Origin: a virus
Lineage: Duplodnaviria; Heunggongvirae; Uroviricota; Caudoviricetes
Virus record (IMG/VR): IMGVR_UViG_3300028832_002797
Reading direction: 5' to 3' (one strand)
Length of the DNA: 41,232 nucleotides
The translations under genes were made by a program, and so were the position numbers. Below are positions 18,693 to 37,113 of the stretch, piece after piece; the stretch's first letter is position 1; every line of letters starts with the position of its first letter. The notes under the pieces were generated by a model. The model had not been told where the DNA came from, ran no database searches, and saw only the letters and a program-made list of their open reading frames with translations.

Positions 18693-18700
18693 TATTTATA
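18693..18700 (-). promoter_or_regulatory. Possible T4-late-like promoter TATAAATA just upstream of tmRNA
   Basis: Overlaps the nadE stop codon, 7 nt before the tmRNA 5' end. Confidence 0.4.
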
Positions 18701-19442
18701 CTCCGAAATGTTCCAAGAAGAAGTCTGGACGCTTAGGATCAAAATGTGCAAATTTTAACATTTCAAGTTTAAACTTACCAGCATTAAACATTTTCATAAT
18801 TTTATCATAATGTTCACCGCGAATTCCTTTTCTAATAAGTTCATTAATTTCATGATAACTAAAACCAAATTTTTCTTCATCCGAAAGTGGTTGAAGTCCA
18901 TCAACTGGAACTTTATGGGTAAGTTCATAAGGTAATCCAAGGTCATCACCGATTTCAATAACTTCTTCAGTAGTCAACATATCAAGTGGTGCGAAACTGC
19001 CTGCATGGTCACCAAATAGCGTCATCCATGAAATTACATTTTCACTGCGATTTCCGGTATTAGCCATCAACCATCCATGTGTTTGGGCTGTTACCATAAT
19101 CTGATTCATTCTAATACGTGCTGGAGCATTTGTTTTTGCATCATAAGACTTGTCAGCACCAGGAACAAGGGCAAGAGATTCCTTTACAAGGGTTTCAATA
19201 TCCTGAACATCATAATCGATACCAAGATGGTCAACTAGCTTATAGGAATCAGAAATATCCTTCTGAATACCACACGGAAGTAAAACACCGTGAACATGTT
19301 CCTTACCAAGTGCAGCAACACAAATAGCCGCAACTACACTAGAATCTTTACCACCAGAAATTCCCAATACAGCATCAGTTTTACCAACGCTATCAAAGAA
19401 ATCCTTGGTCCACTTAACCACATTTTCTGTCAATTCTTTCAT
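18696..19442 (-). CDS. nadE: NH3-dependent NAD+ synthetase
   Basis: VLGISGGKDSSVVA, NAPARIRM, TGNRSE, FGDHAG, PVDGL..DEEKFGFSY; no glutaminase domain. Confidence 0.93.
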   Translation of the reverse strand: MKELTENVVKWTKDFFDSVGKTDAVLGISGGKDSSVVAAICVAALGKEHVHGVLLPCGIQKDISDSYKLVDHLGIDYDVQDIETLVKESLALVPGADKSYDAKTNAPARIRMNQIMVTAQTHGWLMANTGNRSENVISWMTLFGDHAGSFAPLDMLTTEEVIEIGDDLGLPYELTHKVPVDGLQPLSDEEKFGFSYHEINELIRKGIRGEHYDKIMKMFNAGKFKLEMLKFAHFDPKRPDFFLEHFGV

Positions 19443-19517
19443 AAATTTTCCTTATAGAATTAATTTTGTCTTTTACGTTGTTAAAGATAGAAAATTAACC
19501 TATAGTGAAATGTAAAA

Positions 19518-19670
19518 TTATTTTTTACGTTCGGTCTTCGGCTGTTCGAACCAGCGAATATTCCAAAGCTGCTTTCGAATATCCGCTAGCGTATTTCTTT
19601 CTTTAACGATTACACCTCCTACCAGTGTAACTCCCAAAACAGCCAGAAGTGCTTTTACTAATTTATTCAT
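19518..19670 (-). CDS. Small membrane protein (50 aa)
   Basis: Hand-translated MNKLVKALLAVLGVTLVGGVIVKERN...; follows the promoter at 19700-19728. Confidence 0.55.
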   Translation of the reverse strand: MNKLVKALLAVLGVTLVGGVIVKERNTLADIRKQLWNIRWFEQPKTERKK

Positions 19671-19699
19671 TTTTATACCCTTTAATTAATTCTGGCTAC

Positions 19700-19728
19700 A
19701 ATATAGTAAATTTTTCTATTTTTGTAAA
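19700..19728 (-). promoter_or_regulatory. Sigma70-like promoter TTTACA-N17-TATATT
   Basis: Consensus match. Confidence 0.8.
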
Positions 19729-20285
19729 CTATTTGTTTTCAAAAAGTTTGTAAATTTATCAGCCAGAAGTCCGGCGTCACTTCTTTGGCTGAGTTTTTCC
19801 AGAAGCGTCATTTCTTTTGGTTCCTTTTTGACGTCTTCTTCTTCATCATTGTCCGTGAGCATAAACGGATAACGGTTACTATATGCAGCGGTGGCTTCTT
19901 CACGTGCTCGACGAACATGTTCACGTTCAATATCAGTAATCAAACTGATACTGTCTCTAATATCCTCGATTTTACGTTTTGTATCGTTGAGTCGTTCGTC
20001 TATACTCTTGAGACGCGAGGGTAAAGGTCTCATAGGTTCTGCACCAAGAGACGCGACGAACTCACCAATATCATTCATGTATGCATTATAACCAGTCATA
20101 ATACCTTCTATCACCTCATTGTCTTCTTCATTGTCGGATTTTAGAGTTTCTAAATAATCCATAAATTTAGAATTGCAATTGGAATTTTTTAAATCCCCAT
20201 ACAACATTGCGTCGCCCGGGTCCTCAAAATTCTCTACATTCCAACTGTTTTGTTTAAATACTTCCATCGCTTCACGTACATTCAT
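19716..20285 (-). CDS. Hypothetical protein
   Basis: 189-aa ORF with coiled-coil-like middle. Confidence 0.6.
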   Translation of the reverse strand: MNVREAMEVFKQNSWNVENFEDPGDAMLYGDLKNSNCNSKFMDYLETLKSDNEEDNEVIEGIMTGYNAYMNDIGEFVASLGAEPMRPLPSRLKSIDERLNDTKRKIEDIRDSISLITDIEREHVRRAREEATAAYSNRYPFMLTDNDEEEDVKKEPKEMTLLEKLSQRSDAGLLADKFTNFLKTNSLQK

Positions 20286-20288
20286 TGT

Positions 20289-20825
20289 TTAATCTCCCGG
20301 AAGAGTGTCAAGTATGTTTTCAATAGTGAAATCATTTTTGATAATTTCAGGAGTCTTTCCCGACTTTATCTTTCTGACAGTATCGAAATACTTAGTTATA
20401 AGTGACTGTTTAAAGAAATTAGTGTAGCTCTCATAGATTTTACCTCCAAAAAGAGCAACTTCGTCATTACGGATTTTTGAATAAACGCTAATCTTAAAAG
20501 TAGATGCCGTAAATGCAAGATTTAACGTATAATCTCTGTTTTCAAAAATACGGTAAAGACCACGCTCGACGAGCTCAATACAATTAATACTGTACGAGGT
20601 AAAGATTTTCACGAATTCATCAACGCTTTGCTTAAACGCACGTTGAAGTTCTTCTTGCTCCTTCTTCCAATTCTCAATCCACTCTTCATAGGCATTTTTG
20701 GTCTTGACATAGGTATCATGAACGTTAATTGTATTAAGAATGGAATGTTTACTGAGATCGCCCCATACACCGTTAAACTTCTTGGAAAAGCGTTGTTCAA
20801 CTCGTGTCAGCTTGTTGTTAATCAT
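20289..20825 (-). CDS. Hypothetical protein
   Basis: 178-aa ORF after a cassette. Confidence 0.6.
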   Translation of the reverse strand: MINNKLTRVEQRFSKKFNGVWGDLSKHSILNTINVHDTYVKTKNAYEEWIENWKKEQEELQRAFKQSVDEFVKIFTSYSINCIELVERGLYRIFENRDYTLNLAFTASTFKISVYSKIRNDEVALFGGKIYESYTNFFKQSLITKYFDTVRKIKSGKTPEIIKNDFTIENILDTLPGD

Positions 20826-20831
20826 GATGCA

Positions 20832-20868
20832 AATATAAGAAATAAGTTGACTTTCGTCAACCTATTTT
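20832..20868 (-). promoter_or_regulatory. Terminator-promoter cassette
   Basis: Stem AATAGGTTGAC/GTCAACTTATT, GAAA loop; TTGACG-N17-TATATT. Confidence 0.85.
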
Positions 20869-21081
20869 TTAAATCTCCAAAATTAAATCTTCTGGAAGTT
20901 CACCATTTTCAATATCAACAATTCGTTGAGCAGTGGTTTCAGGATCTATACCAGCATTATAAAGGATGTCGATTTCTTTTTCATAGGTTTGGGCATAAAC
21001 GTCATAGTCAATCGATGTACAATAATCAAACCCTGCACAGAGTAAACCTTTGACCTTTTCAAAATATACGTCTCTATCCAT
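20869..21081 (-). CDS. Hypothetical acidic protein
   Basis: 70-aa ORF in array. Confidence 0.55.
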   Translation of the reverse strand: MDRDVYFEKVKGLLCAGFDYCTSIDYDVYAQTYEKEIDILYNAGIDPETTAQRIVDIENGELPEDLILEI

Positions 21082-21088
21082 ATCGTAC

Positions 21089-21415
21089 CTATAATGTTTT
21101 GTTAATCATTTCTTCCATTCTATAGTTATCCATGATTCTATAGGCATGTTCCAGATTTCTTGCACGCATGAAAAGTTCAAAAAACTTATGACGGTCAGGT
21201 ACGATAAGTCTGTTGTTAATAAGTTGATGTTTATCCTTCCACCACCCTTGTGCACATGCTACCATTTGGGTTTCATCCAAAGAAGTTAACCTATAATAAT
21301 CTTTCATGGAATCAGAATAGGTTAATAGCATATCATCTTTTCTATATTTGATATAAATATAATGGAATTCCTTTTCCCATCCATGGGCTTTAAGCTTCTT
21401 ACCTAATCTACTCAT
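21089..21415 (-). CDS. Hypothetical protein
   Basis: 108-aa ORF in array. Confidence 0.55.
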   Translation of the reverse strand: MSRLGKKLKAHGWEKEFHYIYIKYRKDDMLLTYSDSMKDYYRLTSLDETQMVACAQGWWKDKHQLINNRLIVPDRHKFFELFMRARNLEHAYRIMDNYRMEEMINKTL

Positions 21416-22544
21416 TTAATTCCGCCTTATCAAATGTGTGATAATCCTTAAACAGTTTCTTGAATTCGTTCTCGCGGTCCATTTCATCACAGTGAGTAAT
21501 CTCAAGGACATACTTTCCAGAACTCGGACAATTAGCAAAGTCCTTATCGATTCGCTTCTGAAGATTCTTAATGTCCAAATGACCGTACTTGAAGTCACCC
21601 TGGAACTTGTTACGATGGTTCATCAAGTCATCCTGAATATCTCCAGAAATAGTCTTGCGAGCCACTTCATCGAATCGACCAGCACCATGACGGGTCAGAT
21701 ACGGACGGGTCACATAATGAACAGTCAAATCGTTAACAAACTGTAAATCCTGTTTCGAAACCGACTTGACACCTGTGAAAGACGGAGTAGTATGAACATC
21801 CAACGGATTGTCGTTGAGCAACAGTCCTTGACCATTTTCGAAAATATATTCGTCATAACCGGCCGGAATATCGGTAACGAATCTGACATGGTTCAGCATG
21901 AACTTGCAATCTTCAATGAAATGCTTCATTAAACCATCGCTTTCCCAGATTTCCCTTTCCAGCTTACTCATTTCGTACTTGGCCATAATGCCTGTATTCG
22001 GAATGGAATCGAAATACTTAGTATTGAAATAGCTACGTACATATTTCAGGTAGGTTTCCTGGTTAGTCTGGAAATTCCTGGCGAACCTGTCGAATTCCAT
22101 GATAACGCTATTGGTATATCTGGAAACAGTTTCCCAGATACCCATACCGCAAGAGCCATGTTCCTGATGATACTTCTGACGATTCTCTTCAATAACTTGG
22201 TTTGCGATAATGTCAAACGGAGTCGTCCAACGGCAATCCTTATGCATGTATATTTCGCCCATAGACAGCTTCTGGGACAGTTTTTTATATTCCTGTACGA
22301 ACTGCATGGGATTGACAATAAAGTCCTTAGAGAAGTACGTATCAGCCCCAAAACACGTTCCAGAACCGAAGTGCTTGAAAGTATATGCCGTACCGTCCTT
22401 AACGACCGTATGACCACGCTGAGGACCGCCGTTAGTAAGGATATTCAGAACTTTTCCTTCTGCATTCTTGGTATAATAAGCAACGACGGTTCCTTTCGCC
22501 TCATCGCCCCAATTTGCGCCAATAACAATTCTTCCCTTAGCCAT
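21408..22544 (-). CDS. purA: Adenylosuccinate synthetase-like protein (phage short form)
   Basis: GANWGDEAKG, NGGPQRGHTV, GSCGMG, FENGQGLLL, TTPS.TG, YLTRHGAG. Confidence 0.85.
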   Translation of the reverse strand: MAKGRIVIGANWGDEAKGTVVAYYTKNAEGKVLNILTNGGPQRGHTVVKDGTAYTFKHFGSGTCFGADTYFSKDFIVNPMQFVQEYKKLSQKLSMGEIYMHKDCRWTTPFDIIANQVIEENRQKYHQEHGSCGMGIWETVSRYTNSVIMEFDRFARNFQTNQETYLKYVRSYFNTKYFDSIPNTGIMAKYEMSKLEREIWESDGLMKHFIEDCKFMLNHVRFVTDIPAGYDEYIFENGQGLLLNDNPLDVHTTPSFTGVKSVSKQDLQFVNDLTVHYVTRPYLTRHGAGRFDEVARKTISGDIQDDLMNHRNKFQGDFKYGHLDIKNLQKRIDKDFANCPSSGKYVLEITHCDEMDRENEFKKLFKDYHTFDKAELNE

Positions 22545-22923
22545 CTAATCCTTCCGTGGTTAAAATTAAATCGAGATGTTTTAAAGCAATCTTTACCTGG
22601 TCAACAGTTATTTCGTCATCCAAAAATTTGTTTTTTGGAATGAATGTTTGCCCGTTAATTACGAGGCAATGCGGCCTATCATAAAAAATCGGACAGCTAT
22701 AAGTTCTAAAAGTCATTTTCTTGAGGTTCAGATAACCGATAGTCCATTCACCGTTATCTACATGACTATAAACAACGTTTTCAAAACGTTGAACTTTACG
22801 TCTTTTTCTAATAGCTACGATGATACCCGCTTTGGCCCTGTTTATAAACAACTCGGGATTTTCTTTAAATTCTTTAAGTGCAGTCATGTGTTCCGGATTA
22901 TCCTCAGGAGCAAGATGTTTCAT
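22537..22923 (-). CDS. Hypothetical protein
   Basis: 128-aa ORF after a cassette. Confidence 0.55.
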   Translation of the reverse strand: MKHLAPEDNPEHMTALKEFKENPELFINRAKAGIIVAIRKRRKVQRFENVVYSHVDNGEWTIGYLNLKKMTFRTYSCPIFYDRPHCLVINGQTFIPKNKFLDDEITVDQVKIALKHLDLILTTEGLDG

Positions 22924-22929
22924 GGCTAT

Positions 22930-22965
22930 AATATAAAAAATGGATTGACTTTCGTCAACCCATTT
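22930..22965 (-). promoter_or_regulatory. Terminator-promoter cassette
   Basis: Stem AATGGGTTGAC/GTCAATCCATT, GAAA loop; TTGACG-N17-TATATT. Confidence 0.85.
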
Positions 22966-22968
22966 AAT

Positions 22969-23625
22969 TTACCACCTGTCATTGTAGCCAGTCTTATCAA
23001 CATATCTCGATAGAATATCTTGAAGTCTGTCAGAGACCGTTTTCTTTTTTTCATACGGGTCAAACGTTGTATCACCGTCATATTCATAGAAACTATCTGT
23101 CTCTAACTCAGGTTCTTTATCAGGTTCTTCTTCGTTTTCTGTACCCCATGAAATACAACCGTCTTTTGTCCATAAAGGTTCTTCCGGTTTAACTTCAGGC
23201 TGTTTGTCTTCCTTTGGAGCTTCAACCTCCCAACTAATGACATTTACATCATTCGTCGTATCTTCAGAACCAAATAGACTTTCAAACATATCGGGGTCCA
23301 TTACATGAAGTTTATTATGCTTTGCTTTTACTAACCACGTTCCCTTTTTCCATTCTACCCAGGTATCGTTATAAATTTTAACTTCTGGAAAAACTTTCAA
23401 TTCATAACGAGACCAACGGCCATTAGGAACTTCGACTTGTTTTTTATTAATTCTGTAATAACCGCTAAACGTAGCATTTATTTCAGGATCCATAAAATTA
23501 AAATCGTCGCCATAAAAAATGGCCTTCACGTTAGAAGACCATATTTTTAAGGTTTTGCCACAAATCTTATGGTTAGTATCAGAATTGCCCAAATTGGAAT
23601 CTAAGATACCAGCCCATGGATTCAT
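22969..23625 (-). CDS. Hypothetical protein with acidic C-terminal region
   Basis: 218-aa ORF in array. Confidence 0.6.
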   Translation of the reverse strand: MNPWAGILDSNLGNSDTNHKICGKTLKIWSSNVKAIFYGDDFNFMDPEINATFSGYYRINKKQVEVPNGRWSRYELKVFPEVKIYNDTWVEWKKGTWLVKAKHNKLHVMDPDMFESLFGSEDTTNDVNVISWEVEAPKEDKQPEVKPEEPLWTKDGCISWGTENEEEPDKEPELETDSFYEYDGDTTFDPYEKKKTVSDRLQDILSRYVDKTGYNDRW

Positions 23626-23632
23626 GTATTAC

Positions 23633-24523
23633 CTACCAGCGAATGGAGCCATCTTCGGTAGTCTTAACATCTTCGTTAAGAACCGGAGTACCACCGTTAC
23701 GACCGTCAATCGATTCGGCAATGCAAGCTTCGATTACGTTCGGCAAGGCTTCAATAGTAGCAACCTTGGAACGAGGACCGAGCAACTGACCGAAGGAATT
23801 TTCGATACGTCCCTTGTAGCTGCTGTAGCTTGTTGCATAATCATCCACGGAAATGTGGAAAATATCGAACTTCTTGCTTGCTTCCGCATAAAGCTTCTTA
23901 GTATCGACATCACCCTGAACCTTAGCTTCTTCGCCGAGGAAACGTTCAACCTTATGACGAGGAAGTGTCGGATTCAACGGTTCATCACCCATAGTGATGA
24001 TAATACCCTTTCGACCCTGCTTTTCAAAGCAATCAAGCTTTGTCTGCTTAAGACCGAAGAGCCATGCCGCAGAATACGATTCGTAAGCATTACCGCCACC
24101 GCCGTGTTCCATATAAATCTTATCGATTGCCTTGGCAATACGAACGTCAGATTCAAACTGGGAAACCTGGAGAGGTGCGTCATCGCATTCGAGGTCACCA
24201 ATACCCATAATCATGAATTCGATGTCGTCCTTCTTATGTTCCTTCAAGAGGTTAATCATAATCGGGCCGAGTGCTTCTGCCGTACGCTGGCATGCAGAAC
24301 CCATAGAACCGGTCACGTCAAGAGCAAGAATAACCGGCAAAGTATTCGGATGTTCCTTGCTATTGGCACATTCACGGATAACGTTCTTCGGAGACATGGA
24401 TTCATCCATGCGAGTTTCCTTAAACACCTGACCGTGAGTAACATAACCGCTGCTGTCTACCGACTTTCCGACGCTACAGGAATAGCTACGGAAAGAGCTC
24501 ATATCAAAACTTCCGCCACCCAT
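23633..24523 (-). CDS. von Willebrand factor A domain protein
   Basis: VILALDVTGSMG (DxTGS MIDAS variant), GGGGNAYESY, ITMGDEP. Confidence 0.8.
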   Translation of the reverse strand: MGGGSFDMSSFRSYSCSVGKSVDSSGYVTHGQVFKETRMDESMSPKNVIRECANSKEHPNTLPVILALDVTGSMGSACQRTAEALGPIMINLLKEHKKDDIEFMIMGIGDLECDDAPLQVSQFESDVRIAKAIDKIYMEHGGGGNAYESYSAAWLFGLKQTKLDCFEKQGRKGIIITMGDEPLNPTLPRHKVERFLGEEAKVQGDVDTKKLYAEASKKFDIFHISVDDYATSYSSYKGRIENSFGQLLGPRSKVATIEALPNVIEACIAESIDGRNGGTPVLNEDVKTTEDGSIRW

Positions 24524-24537
24524 TGTGGACCTCCTTA

Positions 24538-25257
24538 TTACTTAGTTGCCTTCTTGGTTGCCTTCTTCTTAGCCTTCGGCTTGAATTCTTCTTCTTCATC
24601 TTCACCGAGTTCATCACCTTCTTCGGTTTCTTCGGTGTCGTTACCGGCCCAAGTTGCATCGGTATCGAAGTCGAGGTTGAACATGTTGGTGAAGTCAAAG
24701 CCGCCAGCTGCACCACCATTTCCGAAGAGCTGCTGCATCATGAGCATCTGACCCATACCGCCGAACATGTCGCCGTTGCCGTTATTGCCACCCATCATGC
24801 TCTTCATCATCATGAGCTGGATGAGCTTGCCCATGAGACCCTTACCCTTAAGACCGGCATTACCGAAGAGCGAAACAATCTTGCCGTACCAGAAAGCGCT
24901 GCCGAGGAACACGTGACGTTCCGGAACGATTTCACGGATTTCGCTAGTTTCATAGTCGATGCACTTGAAGGACTTGTCTTCTTCGTTTACACGAAGGACG
25001 CACTTCGGCTTACCCTGAACGAGGATAACGTCACCCGGATTGACCTTAGCGGTCGGAAGGACGAAGAAGAGGTCAGAAGCTTCCATGCAGAAGTTCGTGA
25101 CGTTAGTCAGGCGCTTCTTCGCCATATTGTAAGTCTTGTAACCATTGCTGGTCTTGATGGCAATGCCGCCGCTCATCGAGAGAGCGCAAAGACCCTTGTC
25201 GATCTTGCCGAACATGCCCTTGAATGTGTTACCCATGTTAAAGTCGAAATTGAACAT
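24538..25257 (-). CDS. Conserved phage protein with Met/Gly-rich and acidic/basic tail
   Basis: 239 aa, strongly biased codons, AAGGAA RBS; lies next to the vWA gene. Confidence 0.7.
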   Translation of the reverse strand: MFNFDFNMGNTFKGMFGKIDKGLCALSMSGGIAIKTSNGYKTYNMAKKRLTNVTNFCMEASDLFFVLPTAKVNPGDVILVQGKPKCVLRVNEEDKSFKCIDYETSEIREIVPERHVFLGSAFWYGKIVSLFGNAGLKGKGLMGKLIQLMMMKSMMGGNNGNGDMFGGMGQMLMMQQLFGNGGAAGGFDFTNMFNLDFDTDATWAGNDTEETEEGDELGEDEEEEFKPKAKKKATKKATK

Positions 25258-25303
25258 ATTATGTTTCCTTTTTTGTTTTATTGTTTATTGTTTTTGTTAA
25301 ATT

Positions 25304-25630
25304 TTACCACTTGATAACGTCAACCTTATCGGGTGCGTCCTCAGGTTCATAAAGTGTCTGGAAAGTTTCATCAGGCATGGCATAAAATTGACCATTGACG
25401 CCTTTAACGATCCAATCGCCTTCTGTTGCCGTATGCCGGCCAGTTGTTGTTGTGATAGTTACTCGGACAGTGTATTTTCCAATATCATATCCGATATTAT
25501 ATTCAGTATCGATGTAACCTTCTCCCCAGCTTAAAATCAACGGGAGATTTTCAACAGTGATTTGTACTGCTTCCACCAAAATAGGTTTCTTGCGATACTT
25601 AGGAACTTTTGTAATATTTGTTGTTTCCAT
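25304..25630 (-). CDS. Small conserved phage protein (YRKKP..VEAVQ / GDWIVKG family)
   Basis: KYRKKPILVEAVQ, TATEGDWIVKGVNGQFYAM..ETFQTLYE. Confidence 0.7.
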   Translation of the reverse strand: METTNITKVPKYRKKPILVEAVQITVENLPLILSWGEGYIDTEYNIGYDIGKYTVRVTITTTTGRHTATEGDWIVKGVNGQFYAMPDETFQTLYEPEDAPDKVDVIKW

Positions 25631-25650
25631 GTTGTTTTCTCTTGTGGTTA

Positions 25651-25687
25651 AATATAGTAAAAAAGCCGCTCTTTGTAAGCGGCTTTT
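25651..25687 (-). promoter_or_regulatory. Terminator-promoter cassette that also serves as the attenuator 3 terminator
   Basis: 10-bp stem AAAAGCCGCT/AGCGGCTTTT plus T-tract; CTTACA-N17-TATATT. Confidence 0.85.
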
Positions 25688-25726
25688 ATTTAAAATTGTT
25701 TGTAAATTTTAATTAACGGTATTTAA

Positions 25727-25801
25727 TTAAAATACGACAAAACAAGCCGCGATATGTGACTTGCTTGATGATGAAATAATGTCGTACTTTCTAATAATCA
25801 T
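25727..25801 (-). CDS. Leader peptide 3, MIIRKYDIISSSSKSHIAACFVVF (Ser/Ile-rich)
   Basis: Hand-translated; AGGT RBS-like; TCA TCA TCA AGC AAG TCA; contains GCGGCTT, complementary to the terminator 5' arm. Confidence 0.7.
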   Translation of the reverse strand: MIIRKYDIISSSSKSHIAACFVVF

Positions 25802-25816
25802 TTCTGTTACCTATGC

Positions 25817-29340: not shown

Positions 29341-29346
29341 GGTTAA

Positions 29347-29382: not shown

Positions 29383-29385
29383 TTT

Positions 29386-29529: not shown

Positions 29530-30076
29530 TATTCCCTCCTATATTATTTATTTCGGGAATTGTTAGGTTATTCTTTTCCTTTTCCTTATAATAAGCATCC
29601 ATTAGAATACGTATATCATTGAAGAGCATGTTCTTAGAAAACTTCTCATCAAAGGCTTCGCAATATTCTTTCAATCGAGATATACTTTCATCAAGTCGAT
29701 TTTCTTCCGTGGACTCAACCGCTTCGACAGGTTCCGTTTCAACTTCCTTATATTTTGTAAAGAACTTATCAAACTTATCGAAGTTAAAACGTATCGGCCT
29801 ATTGTCTTCGAAATCGAAATATTCCGACATAATAAAATCCTTAAGACCATATTTCTTTTTAAGATGTTCATACGGCCTAAGATTACAATACGTATATGTA
29901 TCGGTCACTCTGAACGTTATAATTCCAATAATTCGTTCCTTATAAGAAACATACCAGATTTCATCGTTTAGAATTACGTTCTTGACTATATCAAAACCGT
30001 TTCGTAATAAGTTCAGTCGAAACAAATACGACGTGTCATTGAGATAGTTGAACTTATTTATATCTTCGGGTTTCAT
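29507..30076 (-). CDS. Hypothetical protein
   Basis: 189-aa ORF in array. Confidence 0.55.
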   Translation of the reverse strand: MKPEDINKFNYLNDTSYLFRLNLLRNGFDIVKNVILNDEIWYVSYKERIIGIITFRVTDTYTYCNLRPYEHLKKKYGLKDFIMSEYFDFEDNRPIRFNFDKFDKFFTKYKEVETEPVEAVESTEENRLDESISRLKEYCEAFDEKFSKNMLFNDIRILMDAYYKEKEKNNLTIPEINNIGGNNEEEGGN

Positions 30077-30082
30077 AATATG

Positions 30083-30262
30083 TTATTTATTTAGGAATTC
30101 ATCGAAGCTGGAAATAACTTCGTTGAGTGAACGTTGCGGTCTTTCAGACGAACATTCGTCCGGAAAAATTGTGACAATTCTGTTTACTCCCATCAAACCA
30201 AACGTAACAACGAAGCAGATAAGAGGAATAGTCAGCAAAACAAGTAAGATTGTTATTAACAT
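30083..30262 (-). CDS. Small membrane protein (59 aa)
   Basis: Hand-translated MLITILLVLLTIPLICFVV...VISSFDEFLNK. Confidence 0.55.
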   Translation of the reverse strand: MLITILLVLLTIPLICFVVTFGLMGVNRIVTIFPDECSSERPQRSLNEVISSFDEFLNK

Positions 30263-31098
30263 ACTTCAAATACCTTCTTGAAAGTGTCATAGTTGGTCGT
30301 ATCTTCGCTGGAGCAATATACAGCAAATACGATGTTCTTGAAAGAATTCATGAAATGTTCAGAAATAACCTTCTTATAGGCATTAGCCACGACTTCTGGC
30401 GGATTCCTGAACGCACCACAGCCAAAAGCACCGAGAACGACTGTTTCATTTCCATGGAAAGCAGCACAAGAAAGAATCTTGTATGCACGCTCTTCATGAA
30501 GCTTCTGGAGTTCTGCATTAGAAATCTTAACACCTTCGCCGTTTTCATGGTTATAGGCATTGGCAGGAGTTTCACGGAGGTTAGGTGCGGCACAGGTAAT
30601 AACATTCACCTTCTTGGTCTGATAAAGATTGGTATAATTATCAGACTTCAGAATAACGACATCGGGAGTATAGATAATGTCGTCATTGTGCAATGGCGTT
30701 CCATTTGTCTTATGGGGCGTGTAGAACAGTTCTTTTGCCCAATCAGTATTCAGACACTGGTAAAGCGTAGAACAGCGGCAGAGGCACTCTTCTTGAGCAC
30801 TGGAGCCCTTTGTAACGCCGCCACCAGGATTAGTAGCCGAAGCAAAGTTCAAAACGGCGACAGTTCCGTTATACTTACGTGCTGTATTGAAAGATCCTTC
30901 TTTACAAACCGTAATTTTTGCAGGAGTATCAAAAGTTTGTTTCCGACCGTATTTAAAATATTCAGTGGAAGTCTTATCAGCGTAAAATACCTGGTTCTTA
31001 AATGAATGTTCGACAGCTTCTTGAAGCTTACGGTCCTTTGAAATCTGTGCGAGGGTATCGTTAAAAATCTTAATGTTTTCGGATTTCTTAGAGTACAT
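30256..31098 (-). CDS. Bacterial-type poly(ADP-ribose) glycohydrolase (TIGR02452/DUF2263 macrodomain)
   Basis: VLNFASATNPGGG..GSSAQEECLCRCSTLY, IYTPDV, VITCAAPN, VLGAFGCGAFRNPP. Confidence 0.9.
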   Translation of the reverse strand: MYSKKSENIKIFNDTLAQISKDRKLQEAVEHSFKNQVFYADKTSTEYFKYGRKQTFDTPAKITVCKEGSFNTARKYNGTVAVLNFASATNPGGGVTKGSSAQEECLCRCSTLYQCLNTDWAKELFYTPHKTNGTPLHNDDIIYTPDVVILKSDNYTNLYQTKKVNVITCAAPNLRETPANAYNHENGEGVKISNAELQKLHEERAYKILSCAAFHGNETVVLGAFGCGAFRNPPEVVANAYKKVISEHFMNSFKNIVFAVYCSSEDTTNYDTFKKVFEVC

Positions 31099-31124
31099 GT
31101 TTTATCCTATTAGAAGTTTTCCCT

Positions 31125-31161
31125 AATATAGAAAAAGGATTGACGTTTGTCAACCCCTTTT
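31125..31161 (-). promoter_or_regulatory. Terminator-promoter cassette
   Basis: Stem GGGGTTGAC/GTCAATCCT plus T-tract; TTGACA-N17-TATATT. Confidence 0.85.
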
Positions 31162-31162
31162 A

Positions 31163-31230
31163 TTGCAGCCACCTGAATTGAACAGGCCCTCATAGTCATG
31201 GACTATGTATGCACCGTACAACAGACTGCG
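31163..31230 (-). tRNA. Isolated atypical tRNA(CAU), initiator-like C1:A72 mismatch
   Basis: CGCAGTC/GGCTGCA; mini D-arm TGTA-CGG-TGCA; CATAG-TCCATGA-CTATG; GCCTG-TTCAATT-CAGGT. Confidence 0.65.
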
Positions 31231-31300
31231 GGCCCCACTTTGTATTTCAGCCGCTCAAGACACATTTAAGTCTATGTTGCGGCGTGGGTTTTTGCTATGA

Positions 31301-31942
31301 TTAGCGATTCTTGTATTCGCGGACAGCATCTTCGAATTCGAGGTCGATGACGCTGGACTTAAAGTCTTCCTTACGCGGGTTCACGATTTCAGCAACTTCC
31401 TGCTTTGCTTCCATACGGAACTGAGTAGTCTGGACTTCCTTTTCGATTTCAGCAATCATTTCATTGCAATCGAGGCCGAAGTCACCGAGAGCGGTGTTGG
31501 AGCACATCTTGCAAGTATCGATCTGAACCTGGAGAGTCGTCAACTTGGCTTCCATAAGAGCCTTATTGGTATCGATGTTCTTGAGAGTGTCACGAACCTT
31601 GATGCACTGCTTTTCAGTGTTCTGCCAAGCATTTTCGATGGTGTCACGAGCAGACTTGAGGCCCTTCCAAGTGATGAACTTGATCTTGGCTTCATCGGTC
31701 TTGTCACCGTCAACAAGACGTTCCCATTCACGGCGAGCCGTAGCGGTCTGAACGTCAAGTTCGTCAAAGCGCTTCTTCAAGGTCTTAGCATTCACCAACA
31801 TGTCTTCTGCAGACTTGATGTAGTTTGCAGCGTTCTTGTTGTATTGACGACGGATTTCTTCAATCTTATCCTTGGTAGAGATAAGGGATTCGATGCCAGA
31901 CTGTGCCTTGTGAGCGAAGATTTTGAAGATATTGAACTTCAT
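31301..31942 (-). CDS. PspA/IM30-like coiled-coil protein
   Basis: About 213 aa, all-helical heptad pattern, MKFNIFK N-terminus, A..L..GD..EAK pattern; start moved to MKFN. Confidence 0.5.
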   Translation of the reverse strand: MKFNIFKIFAHKAQSGIESLISTKDKIEEIRRQYNKNAANYIKSAEDMLVNAKTLKKRFDELDVQTATARREWERLVDGDKTDEAKIKFITWKGLKSARDTIENAWQNTEKQCIKVRDTLKNIDTNKALMEAKLTTLQVQIDTCKMCSNTALGDFGLDCNEMIAEIEKEVQTTQFRMEAKQEVAEIVNPRKEDFKSSVIDLEFEDAVREYKNR

Positions 31943-31991
31943 GGTTTTTTCCTTTTGTTTGGTGTTACTGTTGTTTATTTTAACGTTGTTA

Positions 31992-32020
31992 AATATAGTA
32001 AAGTTTGTTTGGTTTGTCAA
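31992..32020 (-). promoter_or_regulatory. Sigma70-like promoter TTGACA-N17-TATATT
   Basis: Consensus; AACTTTACTATATTTAACAACGTTA is shared with the promoter at 315-343. Confidence 0.8.
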
Positions 32021-32026
32021 CCCTTT

Positions 32027-32266
32027 TTAATGAGCATTTTCAGTGAGCTGAAGACTGACGCCATCTGTCGGCATATCAGGAACCTTAACAGTAAGGTCCT
32101 TATAATTTACCGATACCGGATTAGGCATATAAACGTTGACGGATTCAAGAGATTTAACCGACTTAACTTCTTTGCTCTTGCTGTATGCTTGACCACCGAA
32201 ATAAACGGCAGCAGAAATACCAAGCAAGGCAACTGTTGAAACCGTAATCTTAATATATGTATTCAT
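32027..32266 (-). CDS. Hypothetical membrane-anchored protein
   Basis: N-terminal hydrophobic helix. Confidence 0.55.
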   Translation of the reverse strand: MNTYIKITVSTVALLGISAAVYFGGQAYSKSKEVKSVKSLESVNVYMPNPVSVNYKDLTVKVPDMPTDGVSLQLTENAH

Positions 32267-32301
32267 TTAGTTTCCTTATTAATTATTCAATTAACGATGT
32301 A

Positions 32302-32330
32302 AATATAGCAATATTTTCACCGGTTGTCAA
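32302..32330 (-). promoter_or_regulatory. Sigma70-like promoter TTGACA-N17-TATATT
   Basis: Consensus match. Confidence 0.8.
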
Positions 32331-32336
32331 TGGTTT

Positions 32337-32621
32337 TTATCTAAACACCTGAGGAACTACCGAATAATTTGTAATGGTGTTGTTGTTACCATTAATTATC
32401 GTAGTCGTGCTTGCAGGAACCAAGTTACGGTTTTTATATTCTTCGATACTTATAGCCATTGCTTTCAGACGCTGTTCTTTGACAAGTGCACGATTATCTT
32501 CGTTTGCGATGTCATTAGCAATAAGAATAGTGCCTACGGAAAAAGCAGCGATTGCAAGGCCGATAAAAAGGGTTGCAATTTGCTTAGAGTCATAGTGGTC
32601 TCTGGAAGATGTAGTACGCAT
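32337..32621 (-). CDS. Hypothetical membrane protein
   Basis: One TM segment. Confidence 0.55.
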   Translation of the reverse strand: MRTTSSRDHYDSKQIATLFIGLAIAAFSVGTILIANDIANEDNRALVKEQRLKAMAISIEEYKNRNLVPASTTTIINGNNNTITNYSVVPQVFR

Positions 32622-32625
32622 GTGA

Positions 32626-33135
32626 TTACTTCCTTAAAAATGTATCGATTTTATTTAATGCACCACCAAGATGCGAGTTAATATAACGTTCATTATCTAT
32701 ATCCTGATTTTCTTTCTTGGTTTTGTATCTTGACCTGATTGAAAACAGATATGCTAAGCTTTCATATAACGGCAAGAAGAAATACCAGTAAGTAGGAGAA
32801 TTACTTGATGTAACTCCAGAAATGAATGCCAATAATATAATATATGCACCCAAAAGTATGAATCGATAACAATACTGTGTAAGTACAGGAGTTACCTTAG
32901 TATATTCGATTGTCTTTTCGGAGTAATAAGAAGCATATACATCCTTTAATTCCGACTTTGAAAGTCCTGCCTTAATACGCATGCTCTGGAACATATCGTA
33001 CTTGCAATCGCAAAGTTCGTTGTCTTCTGCAGCAGTTTCGGTTTTATGAACAACTTTGTCCTGAGTCGGAATACCGGTTATGGCAAAGATAATACATAAT
33101 GCCAAAGCGATTTCAATTAAAATTTTCTTTACCAT
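32626..33135 (-). CDS. Hypothetical membrane protein
   Basis: Three hydrophobic segments. Confidence 0.55.
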   Translation of the reverse strand: MVKKILIEIALALCIIFAITGIPTQDKVVHKTETAAEDNELCDCKYDMFQSMRIKAGLSKSELKDVYASYYSEKTIEYTKVTPVLTQYCYRFILLGAYIILLAFISGVTSSNSPTYWYFFLPLYESLAYLFSIRSRYKTKKENQDIDNERYINSHLGGALNKIDTFLRK

Positions 33136-33692
33136 TCTTTGTCTTCCTCTCTGTGCGGTGTAAGAAACTGATTGTATTTGTTAAGCATATTCGTTTCCGG
33201 AGACTGCTTTCTCTTTTCTTTTCGTTCAGCTAACCATGCCTTAAAATTTGAAATATTCAAGATAGCTCTTTCAATAATGTCCTGAATGGAAGTAAAGAAT
33301 AAAACGCCTAATGTCAAAACTGTAATTACGAGTCCGACAGGAGATAAGAAAACATATCCCATCATGTAGAACGGATAGAACTTTCGTTGTTCATCAAAAT
33401 CACCATGACATCCCCATCCATGAGGATGACTGCATGTACATTTTAATGCACAAATAACAATCACAATAAGAAAACCAATATAGTAAAGAGTATATTGATA
33501 TACCCAAGGATTATCGTTGAGAGTATCTGCTCCACGAAGATCACCAACAAGCCCGATAATAGCTAATGTAATAAATACGACATTACCGACAGACGCTAAA
33601 ATGGTATTGACTAAAAACCATGTACTTGGCGTATCTTCGGCCCAAGTCTCATGCATTAAGTCATCATATAATTTTTCAAAGAATTCTCGCAT
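33129..33692 (-). CDS. Hypothetical membrane protein
   Basis: Three hydrophobic segments. Confidence 0.6.
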   Translation of the reverse strand: MREFFEKLYDDLMHETWAEDTPSTWFLVNTILASVGNVVFITLAIIGLVGDLRGADTLNDNPWVYQYTLYYIGFLIVIVICALKCTCSHPHGWGCHGDFDEQRKFYPFYMMGYVFLSPVGLVITVLTLGVLFFTSIQDIIERAILNISNFKAWLAERKEKRKQSPETNMLNKYNQFLTPHREEDKEW

Positions 33693-34006
33693 CAGTCTTC
33701 TTCCTCTTTTATAATGCTAATTTCTAATACTGTGAACTTATAGTCCTTAAAAAGTTTCTTGGTGAATCGTCGTATATCTCTAAGTTTCTTGCTTATATGA
33801 GTTTCAAACCATGACGGTTCAGGTTCGGGCGGCTTCGGTTTCGGTGGCTCAGGAGGTTTCAGTAACTTATTGAAATCACCGAGTACTTCTGGAAGTTTAT
33901 TATCAACAATCGCTTGTGCTAACAGATCCTTTTCGCCATGCTTTGCAACTATACGAACGATTACCAGCGTAAGAATCAAAAAGCCAATACTAATACAATA
34001 AAACAT
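33692..34006 (-). CDS. Hypothetical membrane protein with Pro-rich linker
   Basis: TM segment then KPPEPPKPKPPEPEP. Confidence 0.55.
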   Translation of the reverse strand: MFYCISIGFLILTLVIVRIVAKHGEKDLLAQAIVDNKLPEVLGDFNKLLKPPEPPKPKPPEPEPSWFETHISKKLRDIRRFTKKLFKDYKFTVLEISIIKEEED

Positions 34007-34007
34007 A

Positions 34008-34229
34008 TCAAACCTTTTTATTTCGTTCTTTAATCTGCTTTTGCAAGTTATTGACGACGATATTTAAATTTTCCTCAGTAATAGGTTTTCGAAGTTTCTT
34101 GAGAATTTCGCGAGCGACACGCAAAAGCTGCTTTTTGTCTGCGGTGTCTGCCTTAGATATTAACTGACTCCAAACTTTGTTCAAGTCCTTAATACCTTCA
34201 GTGTTATATCTATTAGGAAACTTCTCCAT
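34008..34229 (-). CDS. Hypothetical basic protein
   Basis: 73-aa ORF after a promoter. Confidence 0.55.
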   Translation of the reverse strand: MEKFPNRYNTEGIKDLNKVWSQLISKADTADKKQLLRVAREILKKLRKPITEENLNIVVNNLQKQIKERNKKV

Positions 34230-34238
34230 TACGTCGTA

Positions 34239-34267
34239 AATATAGTAAACATTTGCTTAATCGTCAA
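34239..34267 (-). promoter_or_regulatory. Sigma70-like promoter TTGACG-N17-TATATT
   Basis: Consensus match. Confidence 0.75.
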
Positions 34268-34271
34268 TATG

Positions 34272-34850
34272 TTATTTGCTCTTATTACCGTAATAGTCCT
34301 GTAACATATCCCAGTTTGCACCATAATCGAGAAGTTTTGCATTATTCCCCGTAAAACCCCAGGCTGTTATGCGGCAAATCTCAGTATTTGGGATATTAAA
34401 CTTATTCATGATAGCAGTTGTGTCTCTAATAAGCTTCTTTGTCTTCTCAGGAAGTTCAAGACGCTTGATATATTCTTTAGAACCGCCTACATGATAACCA
34501 AAATCGGCGAAATGAATCTTGTAAATGTCGGCAAACTTGTCGAATGTGAACTCACTGACATATTCTGAAATAATTGCATGGCCGTTATGGATATTCATAA
34601 ACGGTTCGGCAAGCGGATTCTTATTGCTTAAAGATAAAAACCAATCCCATTCGTTATTATTTTGAATAATACCTACGTCGAGATGTGCAATCTTGACAAC
34701 TTCATTGTCAGAAATTCGGAATACGGTCCTGGAAGAACCCTTGCCTATTTCTTCATAACCTTGACGCCAGAGTTCAGAACGAAGATCCTTATACTTCTTG
34801 ATGTCGTTATAGTTGTCAATCAAATCACTTATTTTTTTCTTATTTTTCAT
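34272..34850 (-). CDS. Protein kinase-like fold protein
   Basis: IGKGSSRTVF (Gly loop), VVKIA, NE, AWG, LLDYG (DFG-like). Confidence 0.6.
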   Translation of the reverse strand: MKNKKKISDLIDNYNDIKKYKDLRSELWRQGYEEIGKGSSRTVFRISDNEVVKIAHLDVGIIQNNNEWDWFLSLSNKNPLAEPFMNIHNGHAIISEYVSEFTFDKFADIYKIHFADFGYHVGGSKEYIKRLELPEKTKKLIRDTTAIMNKFNIPNTEICRITAWGFTGNNAKLLDYGANWDMLQDYYGNKSK

Positions 34851-34857
34851 TGTGTAT

Positions 34858-34897
34858 AATATAGAAAAAAGGCCCGTTCTTGTAAACGGGTCTTTTT
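34858..34897 (-). promoter_or_regulatory. Terminator-promoter cassette
   Basis: Stem AAAAAGACCCGTT/AACGGGCCTTTTT; TTTACA-N17-TATATT. Confidence 0.85.
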
Positions 34898-34915
34898 AAC
34901 TATATAGGAATCAAA

Positions 34916-36145
34916 TTAGTTATCGTGTTCAACACGCCACTTGATTGCACCCTTCAGATTCTGATGATATTCTTCATCCTTACCCATGAACTTACCATCG
35001 TCGTCAGATACCTTACAGACCGGAATGCCATTGACTTCGGTCAGCTTGATGACCTGGTTCATAGCCTTAAACCAGCCAGTATCGTTGAGCAACCAAGTAC
35101 CGATACCGAACGCAACCTTACAACGGAGGCTGAAACGCTGGAAGATGACTTCCGCCTTAGCGAAATCCAAGGAATCGGAGAACAAGAGAGTCTTGTCTGC
35201 ATACGAAACGCCAATCTTCATGTAATGGGCGAGCATCTTTTCACCCCATTCAATCGGATCTGCGGAGTCATGACGAACACCGCTGAAGAGGCGTGCATAG
35301 GTTTCAGTAAAGTCCTTCAAGAAGCAATCGGTTGTAATACAATCAGTCAGGTAAATACCGTTCTTGGTACCGTATTCCTTAATCCAATGCTTCATCATGT
35401 AAAGATTGGAATAAGCCGGGTTGTGCTGTGGCAAGCCCTGGCCAACGAGTTCGATAGCTTCATGAGCCATAGTTCCAATCGGCTTGGTACCGAAGAGGAA
35501 GCTAAAATAGACGTTAGAAGTACCGACAAACTTAGTGCCCTTGAACTGGAACTTGCTGAGGTACTGCAATGCCCATTCCTGGAATTCCTTGCAGAAACGA
35601 CGACGGGTACCGAATTCGGAGAATGCGCCAATCTTGATTTCTCCCTTGATAAGCTTGTCAACCTTTTCCATAAAGCGCTTCTTTGCATCTTCAATAATCT
35701 GTGCCTGTTCTTCCGGAGTATAGCTCATTCGGAACCAGACTTCAGACACGATAGACATGACCGGAACTTCATGGTAAGAAACGTCAACATTATAACCGCG
35801 GAAATGAATTTCCGGTTGCTGGAGCTGTTCATCGAACACACAAGTAATTTCGTCACGGTCGATGGTATAACGCTGAAGGAAACGAACATAGTCATCCTTC
35901 ATGAAATCAATTCGCTTGAATCCCTGAAGTTCCCACGAAGTGTAACGGAGCTTGGAATACAAATCAATCTGATAATTGATTTCATCAATCATTTCGCGAG
36001 TGAACTTTCGGTTCGGGTCGCGGTTCTTATAGGTCCATTCCACCTTCATGTCGTGGAACTGATGGACGAACATCTGACCCATAGTGTACTTATAGAAGTC
36101 ATTGTCCGTCAAATGTGTAATGATTTGAGGCAAGTGATTTGTCAT
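34916..36145 (-). CDS. pncB: Nicotinate phosphoribosyltransferase
   Basis: TDNDFYKYTM, EFGTRRR, GTSNV, GTMAHE, GVRHDSADP, FSDSL, FGIGT, KVSDDDGK. Confidence 0.93.
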   Translation of the reverse strand: MTNHLPQIITHLTDNDFYKYTMGQMFVHQFHDMKVEWTYKNRDPNRKFTREMIDEINYQIDLYSKLRYTSWELQGFKRIDFMKDDYVRFLQRYTIDRDEITCVFDEQLQQPEIHFRGYNVDVSYHEVPVMSIVSEVWFRMSYTPEEQAQIIEDAKKRFMEKVDKLIKGEIKIGAFSEFGTRRRFCKEFQEWALQYLSKFQFKGTKFVGTSNVYFSFLFGTKPIGTMAHEAIELVGQGLPQHNPAYSNLYMMKHWIKEYGTKNGIYLTDCITTDCFLKDFTETYARLFSGVRHDSADPIEWGEKMLAHYMKIGVSYADKTLLFSDSLDFAKAEVIFQRFSLRCKVAFGIGTWLLNDTGWFKAMNQVIKLTEVNGIPVCKVSDDDGKFMGKDEEYHQNLKGAIKWRVEHDN

Positions 36146-36166
36146 TTTCAGTTTCCTTTTTAGTAG

Positions 36167-36514
36167 TTAGTCGTTAAAATACGGTTGAAGAGCAACGATA
36201 TACCCGTCAAGAGGCTTATCACATTCGTTTTCCGCTTCCAGACAACGCTTGTAAAAGTCCTCCTTATAGTATTTGGACTTTTCCTTGAAGCAGAGTTCAT
36301 AAAGTTCATTTACGAGCTTGTAACGGTGCATCTTGGCGTCATTTCGAGAATGACCGATAAGATAGTTCAAGCTACGCTTGAGCTTCTTCGGCTTTTCAGC
36401 CAGACATTCATGGAGATAACGTGCACACTGTTGATATTGCTGGCATGCAAGATAGCGACCGATGTTTTCATTGATGGTATGATCCGGTCCAAAGAGTTGT
36501 TGGAATACGCCCAT
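36167..36514 (-). CDS. Hypothetical protein between pncA and pncB
   Basis: 115-aa ORF with stop/start overlap. Confidence 0.6.
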   Translation of the reverse strand: MGVFQQLFGPDHTINENIGRYLACQQYQQCARYLHECLAEKPKKLKRSLNYLIGHSRNDAKMHRYKLVNELYELCFKEKSKYYKEDFYKRCLEAENECDKPLDGYIVALQPYFND

Positions 36515-37113
36515 TATGCAGCCTCACGGAGAACGGTGATTTGACAGCTTTCCATAACCTTGAGAGCCGCTTCATGAAGTTCCGGTGTAACACCAGCACA
36601 GCAGTTTTCGACAACTGTAATCTTCATGTTCGGGAAGAGTGCCCGGAGCATAAGAGCATTGGAAACGACACAAATATCTGTACAAAAACCGAAGAGTTCA
36701 ATTTCTTCAAATTCGAAGTCCTTGAGATAATCCTTCCAGCCAGTCCAGCCAAAGGTATACTTGTCGATAGCGAAGAACTTCTTCTGTCCGTTTTTATCCT
36801 TTTCACGAAGAACTTCGAGAAGTTCAGGATGAATTTCCCAACCCGGAGTAAGCTTGATACAATGAGCCGGAAGACCTGCAAACTTATGTTCGTAGGAATC
36901 TTCATAAGCGATTCCTTCTGCAGGAGGCCAGTTGCTTTCAACCTGGACCTTATTGAAATGTGTATCATGTGTAGCGATAGTTACGCCATCATGCTGGCGA
37001 ATACGCTGTTTAAGATTAGGAAGCTTCTTTTGAGCTTCAGTATTAGGCAGAGCACCGTCAATAAAGTCGGTCTGCCCGTCAATCAAAATTTGAAGAATCT
37101 TTGTTTTAATCAT
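36514..37113 (-). CDS. pncA: Nicotinamidase (isochorismatase/cysteine hydrolase family)
   Basis: IDGQTDF, HDTH, AHC, IDKYTFG, GFCTDICV (Asp/Lys/Cys triad and metal ligands); linked to pncB. Confidence 0.88.
   Translation of the reverse strand: MIKTKILQILIDGQTDFIDGALPNTEAQKKLPNLKQRIRQHDGVTIATHDTHFNKVQVESNWPPAEGIAYEDSYEHKFAGLPAHCIKLTPGWEIHPELLEVLREKDKNGQKKFFAIDKYTFGWTGWKDYLKDFEFEEIELFGFCTDICVVSNALMLRALFPNMKITVVENCCAGVTPELHEAALKVMESCQITVLREAA

Follow-up and report, generated by a model that had tools for sequence, protein, structure and literature searches.

A predicted phage route from nicotinamide to NAD+ through nicotinate, with pncA, pncB and nadE scattered in the genome of a probable giant phage of the gut or rumen

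Bacteria commonly abort phage infection by depleting nicotinamide adenine dinucleotide (NAD+), and experiments have established three phage pathways that restore it, namely, NARP1 (Adps and Namat), NARP2 (Nampt and Nmnat) and, published in 2026, NARP3 (PnuC and NadR; PMC13464706). NARP2 has been shown to counter NADase defenses, and the comparable NadV/NatV pair of Vibrio phage KVP40 (Nampt plus a bifunctional Nmnat-Nudix protein) is active in vitro according to work cited in PMC11662467. A survey published in 2022 named, among the NAD systems of viruses, the NadV/NadM/NadR route alone, and in 2024 phage Preiss-Handler clusters of the form pncB-nadD-nadE were published, together with a mention of phage pncA and the suggestion that such clusters counter NAD+ depletion (PMC11662467). 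Here we describe a 41,232-nucleotide stretch of viral DNA (IMG/VR record IMGVR_UViG_3300028832_002797; "the window" below means this whole stretch) that carries pncA, pncB and nadE. From their sequences and those of related phages, we consider these genes likely to be the in-window part of a phage-encoded four-enzyme route that leads from nicotinamide to NAD+ through nicotinate. The three genes are as follows.

36514..37113, minus strand: pncA, predicted nicotinamidase of the isochorismatase-like hydrolase family (199 aa; PF00857, catalytic residues, AlphaFold [AF2] model)
34916..36145, minus strand: pncB, nicotinate phosphoribosyltransferase (409 aa; NF003704, TIGR01514, PDB 1yir)
18696..19442, minus strand: nadE, single-domain NH3-dependent NAD+ synthetase (248 aa; TIGR00552, SGGKDS motif, PDB 2e18, phrog_11189)

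All three genes are intact and encode the catalytic motifs of their families, and exactly one open reading frame (ORF), at 36167-36514 and in the same orientation, lies between pncA and pncB, as the original prediction for this DNA had reported. That prediction assigned the three genes to a single deamidating route from nicotinamide to NAD+, which is supported here by the gene identities and by the full gene set of related phages. It was also right to describe NARP1 and NARP2 as amidated routes, but its suggestion of a third strategy for NAD+ reconstitution is overtaken by the literature, since both NARP3 (PMC13464706) and the Preiss-Handler clusters (PMC11662467) had already been described. 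The window adds no new principle; the pathway reading is sound and the claim of novelty fails. What the pathway reading builds on was observed directly: the identities of the genes, their conserved catalytic residues, the fact that the four genes occur together and close to one another in related phages, and the origin of the DNA from a phage.

The closest described counterparts are the "NAD-jumbo phages" (Kuafu_71, pncB-nadD-nadE; Microbiome 2024, PMC11662467). They are gut or rumen phages of more than 200 kb with pncB, an adenylyltransferase gene and nadE and, alongside, NAD-consuming enzymes such as an NAD-dependent ligase, a combination that the phage studied here probably shares, and a role against NAD+ depletion has been proposed for them. 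By the features that define that group, pncB and nadE are in the window, nadD is in the relatives G001 and G002, and these closest relatives measure 411 and 424 kb. The present phage differs in having a nicotinamidase gene as well, so that the input would be nicotinamide and not nicotinate, in an adenylyltransferase that is fused to a Nudix domain (as seen in relatives), and in genes that are scattered instead of forming one cluster. A further difference is that the compact four-gene form was found here in contigs of about 100 to 196 kb, below the jumbo limit.

NARP2 and the KVP40 pair resemble the phage route predicted here in starting from nicotinamide and in including an adenylyltransferase-Nudix fusion. 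They differ in proceeding by two amidated steps through nicotinamide mononucleotide (NMN), whereas four deamidated steps through nicotinate are predicted here. Each of the five complete giant relatives that we searched (332 to 467 kb) holds a single gene of the nicotinate phosphoribosyltransferase (NAPRTase) family, which is of the PncB type, and the adenylyltransferase half of the fusion is NadD-like and not NadM-like. NARP1 and NARP3 likewise restore NAD+ during infection, but a PRPP (phosphoribosyl pyrophosphate)-synthetase-like gene, as in NARP1, and the PnuC transporter, as in NARP3, were found in none of the five relatives, which suggests that ADP-ribose is not reused directly and that nicotinamide riboside is not imported. 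In these five genomes, we found no gene that qualifies as Adps of NARP1, Nampt of NARP2 or PnuC of NARP3.

The original prediction took the contig to be that of a phage, and this is borne out. The window is 92% coding, its substantial ORFs all lie on the minus strand, and it includes tRNA genes. Its PncB is 71 to 91% identical to proteins of IMG/VR viral contigs, in contrast to 46 to 51% for its nearest cellular counterparts. Of the complete relatives, G001 and G002 (PncB 91% and 87% identical) are the closest; they are 411 kb (98% complete) and 424 kb (with terminal repeats, 100% complete) according to CheckV. A gene for a Gp23 capsid protein of the T4 type is present in both (E 5e-70), and 0 of 14 cellular controls gave a match to this family. 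Public contigs with an identical PncB and the gene order of the window, which are fragments of 107 and 162 kb, carry a gene for a T4 UvsX recombinase just past the position where the window ends, and a BRCT gene also lies just past the window end on a contig with an identical PncB. Comparison with deposited phages at the nucleotide level gave no match, whether for the region around pncA and pncB, that around nadE or the compact operon found in L016, a phage of about 150 kb. The source is a T4-related phage, probably of about 400 kb, and its host is probably a member of the rumen or gut Bacillota. In G002 (L081:122-1875), a TarF/TarL-like teichoic-acid polymerase gene stands with a gene resembling glycerol-3-phosphate cytidylyltransferase (161 bits, cut-off 165), and these teichoic-acid-type genes hint at a Gram-positive host.

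The pncA product matches the Pfam family Isochorismatase (PF00857) with 67 bits (cut-off 27). Its residues D12, K118 and C148, together with D50, H52 and H84, are invariant in the 23 to 64 phage homologues of the alignments; the first three align with the triad of Pyrococcus horikoshii PncA (PDB 1im5), whose residue roles we take to apply here, and are invariant in 62 to 64 homologues. The metal ligands D50-x-H52 and the distal H84 are invariant in 64 of 64, and an Asp-x-His pair with a distal His is the metal site that separates nicotinamidases from other members of the family; the match of the D-x-H pair to solved nicotinamidases was read by eye, as the phmmer alignment is gap-shifted there. 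Compared with PDB sequences, nearly all matches of the protein are nicotinamidases, and the 13 best fold matches of its AF2 model (predicted local distance difference test [pLDDT] score, 94.3) are all solved nicotinamidases, with a Foldseek probability of 1.00 and template-modeling (TM) scores of 0.69 to 0.76 by model and up to 0.83 by target. Homologue searches returned almost exclusively unnamed metagenome proteins. Despite a profile score at the level of the family, these features point to a predicted nicotinamidase.

The assignment of PncB draws on equivalog profiles, as its product exceeds the cut-offs of NF003704 (398.2 bits, cut-off 379) and TIGR01514 (329.9 bits, cut-off 269.55), and both Pfam NAPRTase domains (PF17767 and PF04095) match. 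It aligns end to end with Pseudomonas aeruginosa PncB2 (PDB 1yir, E 7e-71), with an identical GTMAHE motif; H228 of this GT-x-AHE motif, which we take to be the phosphohistidine site, is with its motif at least 97% conserved in 69 homologues, as are 150 residues in all. NadE exceeds the cut-off of TIGR00552 (147.6 bits, cut-off 63.65) and remains under that of the full-length equivalog NF010587 (145 bits, cut-off 255). Its PP-loop SGGKDS occupies residues 29 to 34, in which S29, G30, G31, D33 and S34 are conserved; for all three enzymes, the catalytic residues hold in more than 60 phage homologues. The protein is a single domain that does not contain the glutaminase (CN-hydrolase) part, and models of glutamine-dependent enzymes match it in the synthetase part alone. 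The solved structures closest to it are those of NH3-dependent NAD synthetases (PDB 2e18, E 1.4e-27), and its PHROG match is phrog_11189, "NAD synthetase" (E 1e-36).

An adenylyltransferase is needed between PncB and NadE in this scheme, and the original prediction noted that the window lacks one. This is the case, as no CTP_transf_like Pfam match was found in the about 50 window ORFs scanned, and when three phage adenylyltransferases were compared with all six frames of the window by tblastn, the best E value was 0.21. The prediction further held that this enzyme must be encoded elsewhere in the phage genome or be supplied by the host. The first of these is what the closest complete relatives show, although the gene was seen in them and not in the window: G001 and G002 encode an adenylyltransferase-Nudix protein of 372 to 381 aa, 27 kb and 15 kb upstream of pncB, respectively, whose N-terminal half is NadD-like (TIGR00482, 72 bits) and whose C-terminal half matches the Nudix half of NadM-Nudix proteins. 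The search of the rest of the genome that had been proposed, for NadD, NadM or NadR and for a PRPP synthetase, was run on the complete relatives and succeeded for the adenylyltransferase in five of five and for PRPP synthetase (Pribosyltran_N) in none of five, so that PRPP must come from the host.

We infer the enzyme activities and the order of substrates, as well as expression of the genes from the same type of promoter and a benefit to the phage. In the first step, PncA would convert nicotinamide to nicotinate and NH3, and in the second PncB, in an ATP-coupled reaction, would combine nicotinate with host-made PRPP to give nicotinate mononucleotide (NaMN). The NadD half of the NadD-Nudix fusion would then form nicotinate adenine dinucleotide (NaAD) from NaMN, and the NH3-dependent NadE would convert NaAD, ATP and NH3 to NAD+. 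The Nudix half probably splits ADP-ribose. Whatever drains the NAD+ pool of the infected cell, the most likely effect of such a module would be to keep that pool up.

Among large phages of the gut and rumen, the deamidating route is widespread. Each of the five complete giants has pncA, pncB, nadE and an adenylyltransferase gene, and we surveyed 59 viral loci for which the sequence surrounding pncB amounts to 19 kb or more, many of which are close relatives and thus not independent samples. In this survey, pncA was present at 59 of 59 loci, nadE at 56 of 59 and an adenylyltransferase gene at 53 of 59; all four genes occurred together at 53 of 59, with a median start-to-start span of 3.55 kb. 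Phage contigs of about 100 to 196 kb have the order pncA, DUF5662, pncB, nadD, nadE, and in G002 nadE directly follows pncB. In the lineage of the phage studied here, about 15.5 kb of other accessory genes separate pncB from nadE. The DUF5662 gene stands between pncA and pncB in phages of about 150 kb (L016:9439-10005) and at 47 of 59 related loci; by eye, its product has an H...HD...H...D pattern like that of HD phosphohydrolases, and for it neither a sequence match in the PDB nor a named Atlas cluster was obtained. In G004 (L072:15183-15596), an HDIG-domain gene lies between the adenylyltransferase gene and nadE. A gene of this kind, DUF5662 or HDIG, seems to be a fifth component that recurs in the module.

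While the other three genes are constant, the adenylyltransferase occurs in four forms: NadD alone (102 bits on TIGR00482), NadD-Nudix, a stand-alone NadR/NadM-like protein (168 aa in G004), and a NadR/NadM-type protein fused to NadE as one 413-aa protein (G005). The gene for the 413-aa fusion is at L073:15670-16911, in a 467-kb phage. One step that is swapped and two steps that are fused are what would be expected from selection on the whole pathway.

Among cellular sequences, the nearest relatives of this PncB come from rumen and gut Lachnospiraceae (Butyrivibrio and Roseburia), other Clostridia and Erysipelotrichaceae. On a Butyrivibrio chromosome, pncA, the adenylyltransferase gene, pncB and nadE stand side by side, and pncA is just upstream of pncB at 28 of 42 cellular loci. 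The Lachnospiraceae clusters (for example, L097 of Butyrivibrio hungatei DSM 14810) resemble the phage set in comprising the same four enzyme families in one co-oriented cluster and differ in being cellular housekeeping copies whose adenylyltransferase is NadR/NadM-like and not NadD-Nudix. In the PncB tree, the phages of about 150 kb and the group of G004 and G005 nest among Lachnospiraceae, while the clade of the window (nine viral rows, 100/100 support) sits on a very long separate branch with a stem length of 2.93, and its placement is to be read with care. Well-supported branches of this tree force at least two changes between phage and cell; pncB thus entered phages more than once. We had also considered that the phage supplies PncA to a host that does not have it, and we dropped this idea because the closest cellular relatives carry pncA beside pncB.

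The surroundings of the three genes include the following features.

37677..37705, minus strand: promoter-like site TTTACA-N17-TATATT, 5' of the pncA unit (exact motif; putative function)
37316..37669, minus strand: orf117, first gene after this site (117 aa; called on a public contig with an identical PncB)
37127..37312, minus strand: orf61, small protein directly upstream of pncA (from the ORF list; called on public contigs)
36167..36514, minus strand: orf115, conserved all-helical protein between pncA and pncB (115 aa; start overlaps the pncA stop)
34873..34890, minus strand: terminator-like hairpin, 26 nt past the pncB stop (consensus match; overlaps the promoter-like site 34858-34886)
34272-34850, minus strand: orf192, just downstream of pncB (192 aa; own promoter-like site)
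30256..31098, minus strand: microbial-type PARG (ADP-ribose glycohydrolase), between pncB and nadE (PF10021, E 2e-35)
19700..19728, minus strand: promoter-like site TTTACA-N17-TATATT, 5' of the nadE unit (exact motif)
19518..19670, minus strand: 50-codon ORF between this site and nadE (from the ORF list)

At six sites in the window, without exception on the minus (coding) strand (315-343, 8828-8856, 11083-11111, 19700-19728, 34858-34886 and 37677-37705), the sequence matches TTTACA-N17-TATATT exactly, where 0 copies are expected from 100 shuffles, and this motif is probably one promoter class of the phage. The copy at 37677-37705 precedes orf117, orf61, pncA, orf115 and pncB, and the copy at 19700-19728 precedes the 50-codon ORF and nadE. 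The shared motif suggests that the pncA and nadE units may be co-expressed from the same class of promoter. Sigma-70-like promoters and terminators as a class were no commoner in the window than in shuffled sequence, and the same was true of terminator-like sites near pncB.

The start of orf115 overlaps the stop of pncA, and by this arrangement the gene appears translationally coupled. Its product is 40 to 80% identical in six close relatives, where it holds the same position, and its AF2 model is helical and confident (pLDDT 83.9); it gave no Pfam, PHROG or PDB fold match, its Atlas matches are at chance level, and it has no similarity to the DUF5662 gene that occupies the same slot in other phages. 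No PHROG match was obtained for orf117 or orf61. L001, L002 and L015 have the PARG gene in the corresponding place (90% identity); it fits a theme of NAD and ADP-ribose, and it is a candidate member of the pathway. The orf192 product, inspected by eye, resembles a minimal protein kinase in its glycine-rich loop, its VVK motif and its DYG motif; phrog_4301 (unknown function) was its sole match apart from a weak Atlas lead to a T7-type protein kinase, and no PDB sequence match was found. No vWA/phosphatase/kinase cassette was detected in the neighborhood of pncA.

Further along, a transfer-messenger RNA (tmRNA) gene identified by ARAGORN (18331-18685, minus strand, tag ANTYAMAA) starts 10 nt after the nadE stop. 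An adenylosuccinate-synthetase-like gene (21408-22544, minus strand) matches phrog_1211, "2-aminooxy adenylosuccinate synthetase" (E 3e-44), and its product is possibly PurZ-like, for DNA with a modified base. At 13689-14834 (minus strand), a nucleoside 2-deoxyribosyltransferase-like domain (PF15891) is fused to a calcineurin-like phosphoesterase; domains of this wider class have been proposed to process ADP-ribose-derived signals in phages (PMC9503650). The accessory region also holds an RtcB RNA ligase gene (3593-4855), a gene whose product has a short Pth2-like match (1725-2321) and a cluster of tRNA genes for Lys and Gln (8097-8633), all on the minus strand, as well as genes for a radical SAM protein (10038-11075), Hsp20 (13089-13598), a rhomboid protein (347-928) and an M18 aminopeptidase (39471-40805).

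The question of what such a module is kept for has two possible answers, which are not mutually exclusive. The first, to which we give a substantial chance, if one somewhat short of even, is that these genes form an ordinary auxiliary metabolic set that supplies NAD+ to the phage's own NAD consumers, such as DNA ligase and any ADP-ribosylation cycle, and to the redox demand of replicating 400 kb, with no specific link to immunity. In keeping with this, an adenylation domain of NAD-dependent ligase is encoded in five of the five giant relatives, the BRCT gene lies just past the window on the contig with an identical PncB, and the PARG gene is located between pncB and nadE. Cofactor synthesis appears moreover to be a general theme of these phages, as G001 has adjacent genes for CoaD (pantetheine-phosphate adenylyltransferase, 110 bits, cut-off 103) and a dephospho-CoA-kinase-like protein at L082:1483-2925; CoaD and dephospho-CoA kinase catalyze the last two steps of coenzyme A synthesis. 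However, NAD-dependent ligase releases NMN and not nicotinamide, and the ligase therefore does not explain a pncA gene that is present at every one of the 59 loci.

The second answer is that the module is a dedicated, NARP-like counter-defense, which would rebuild NAD+ from the nicotinamide that NADases of the SIR2 and TIR types release, with the Nudix domain disposing of ADP-ribose. We regard such a role as plausible and, as the full account of the module, as a tentative possibility that has perhaps a one-third share of our belief. Nicotinamide, the product of NADases, is precisely what PncA takes as its input, the adenylyltransferase seen in relatives bears a Nudix domain resembling the one in NadM-Nudix, and the repeated entry of pncB into phages suggests repeated selection. 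The accessory region around the genes moreover holds RtcB, a cluster of tRNA genes, the microbial PARG and the deoxyribosyltransferase-like/phosphoesterase fusion, and regions of this kind, for early host manipulation and NAD-ADP-ribose conflict, have been described (PMC9503650). NARP1 to NARP3 show that rebuilding NAD+ can defeat such defenses, and the same idea has been put forward for phage Preiss-Handler clusters (PMC11662467). On the other hand, the deamidating route spends ATP at several steps (NadD, NadE and the ATP-coupled PncB) and requires host PRPP, the Lachnospiraceae, as the closest cellular relatives, own the same cluster, so that the phage may add only dosage, and the literature that we searched contains no experimental test of any phage Preiss-Handler (deamidating) set.

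In its most far-reaching form, this idea would make the PncA/PncB/NadD-Nudix/NadE route a fourth counter-defense by NAD+ reconstitution, captured several times by phages of gut and rumen Bacillota from their hosts, which rescues infection from SIR2/TIR NADase immunity and clears ADP-ribose, and in which orf115, DUF5662 and the HDIG gene are new accessory parts. Taken as a whole, this extended version is doubtful.

Several observations weigh against the four-enzyme route itself as we have drawn it. The genes are scattered in this phage and do not form a single operon, none of the five giant relatives encodes a PRPP synthetase, the NadD half of the fusion is below the equivalog cut-off (72 bits compared with 112.45 on TIGR00482), and the NadD-Nudix step for this phage is a prediction from the relatives G001 and G002. 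The PncA protein reaches 35.1 bits on the NCBIfam nicotinamidase equivalog NF008623, compared with a cut-off of 174; its divergence from the enterobacterial type is too great for this model. NadE belongs to the short type (about 250 aa), and its solved relatives include, besides the ordinary archaeal NAD synthetase 2e18 as the best, the Francisella enzyme 3fiu as the third-best, which presumably amidates NaMN rather than NaAD.

This last point opens the alternative that the steps follow the Francisella order, in which PncB forms NaMN, the short NadE converts NaMN to NMN, and the adenylyltransferase turns NMN into NAD+. NadR/NadM-like adenylyltransferases are normally NMN-specific, and the presence of such an enzyme in the distant giants G004 and G005, fused to NadE in the latter, would fit this order. 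In the clade of the window and in the phages of about 150 kb, however, the adenylyltransferase is of the NadD type (72 to 102 bits on TIGR00482), and NadD usually prefers NaMN. This makes the Francisella order less likely, as does the fact that the best solved relative of NadE is 2e18, and we judge it unlikely for the phage studied here.

It is also conceivable that the pncA-like gene encodes another amidohydrolase of the isochorismatase family, in which case the window would hold a salvage of nicotinate by PncB and NadE and not a recycling of nicotinamide. The low equivalog score fits with this, together with a weaker match to biuret hydrolase, and the fold family has many activities, with carbamoylsarcosine amidase, triuret hydrolase and biuret hydrolase lower in the fold list. 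The invariant D50-x-H52...H84 site and the invariant D12, K118 and C148, the nicotinamidases that make up the 13 best structural and nearly all PDB sequence matches, and the position of pncA next to pncB both in phages and in Lachnospiraceae chromosomes argue against it, and we hold this alternative to be very unlikely. A cellular origin of the contig, or its being a misbinned piece of a chromosome, with ordinary bacterial housekeeping copies, is extremely improbable. Lachnospiraceae do hold close homologues in the same gene cluster, but the far higher PncB identity to viral contigs than to cells, Gp23 in the 411- and 424-kb relatives, UvsX on a contig with an identical PncB, and a window PncB clade of viral sequences exclusively, with full support, rule out a cellular origin at the level of sequence evidence.

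The preferred reading thus remains a phage-encoded deamidating route from nicotinamide to NAD+ in four steps, and what stands out here is the wide spacing of the genes, together with the predicted fusion of NadD to a Nudix domain and the exchange of one adenylyltransferase for another among relatives. The set survives in a scattered layout, its adenylyltransferase has been swapped among three or four non-equivalent forms, and pncB has entered phages repeatedly, which suggests selection on the whole pathway. If the counter-defense role is true, this route would be a fourth, and probably very common, phage solution to the depletion of NAD+ and a candidate payload for engineered phages.

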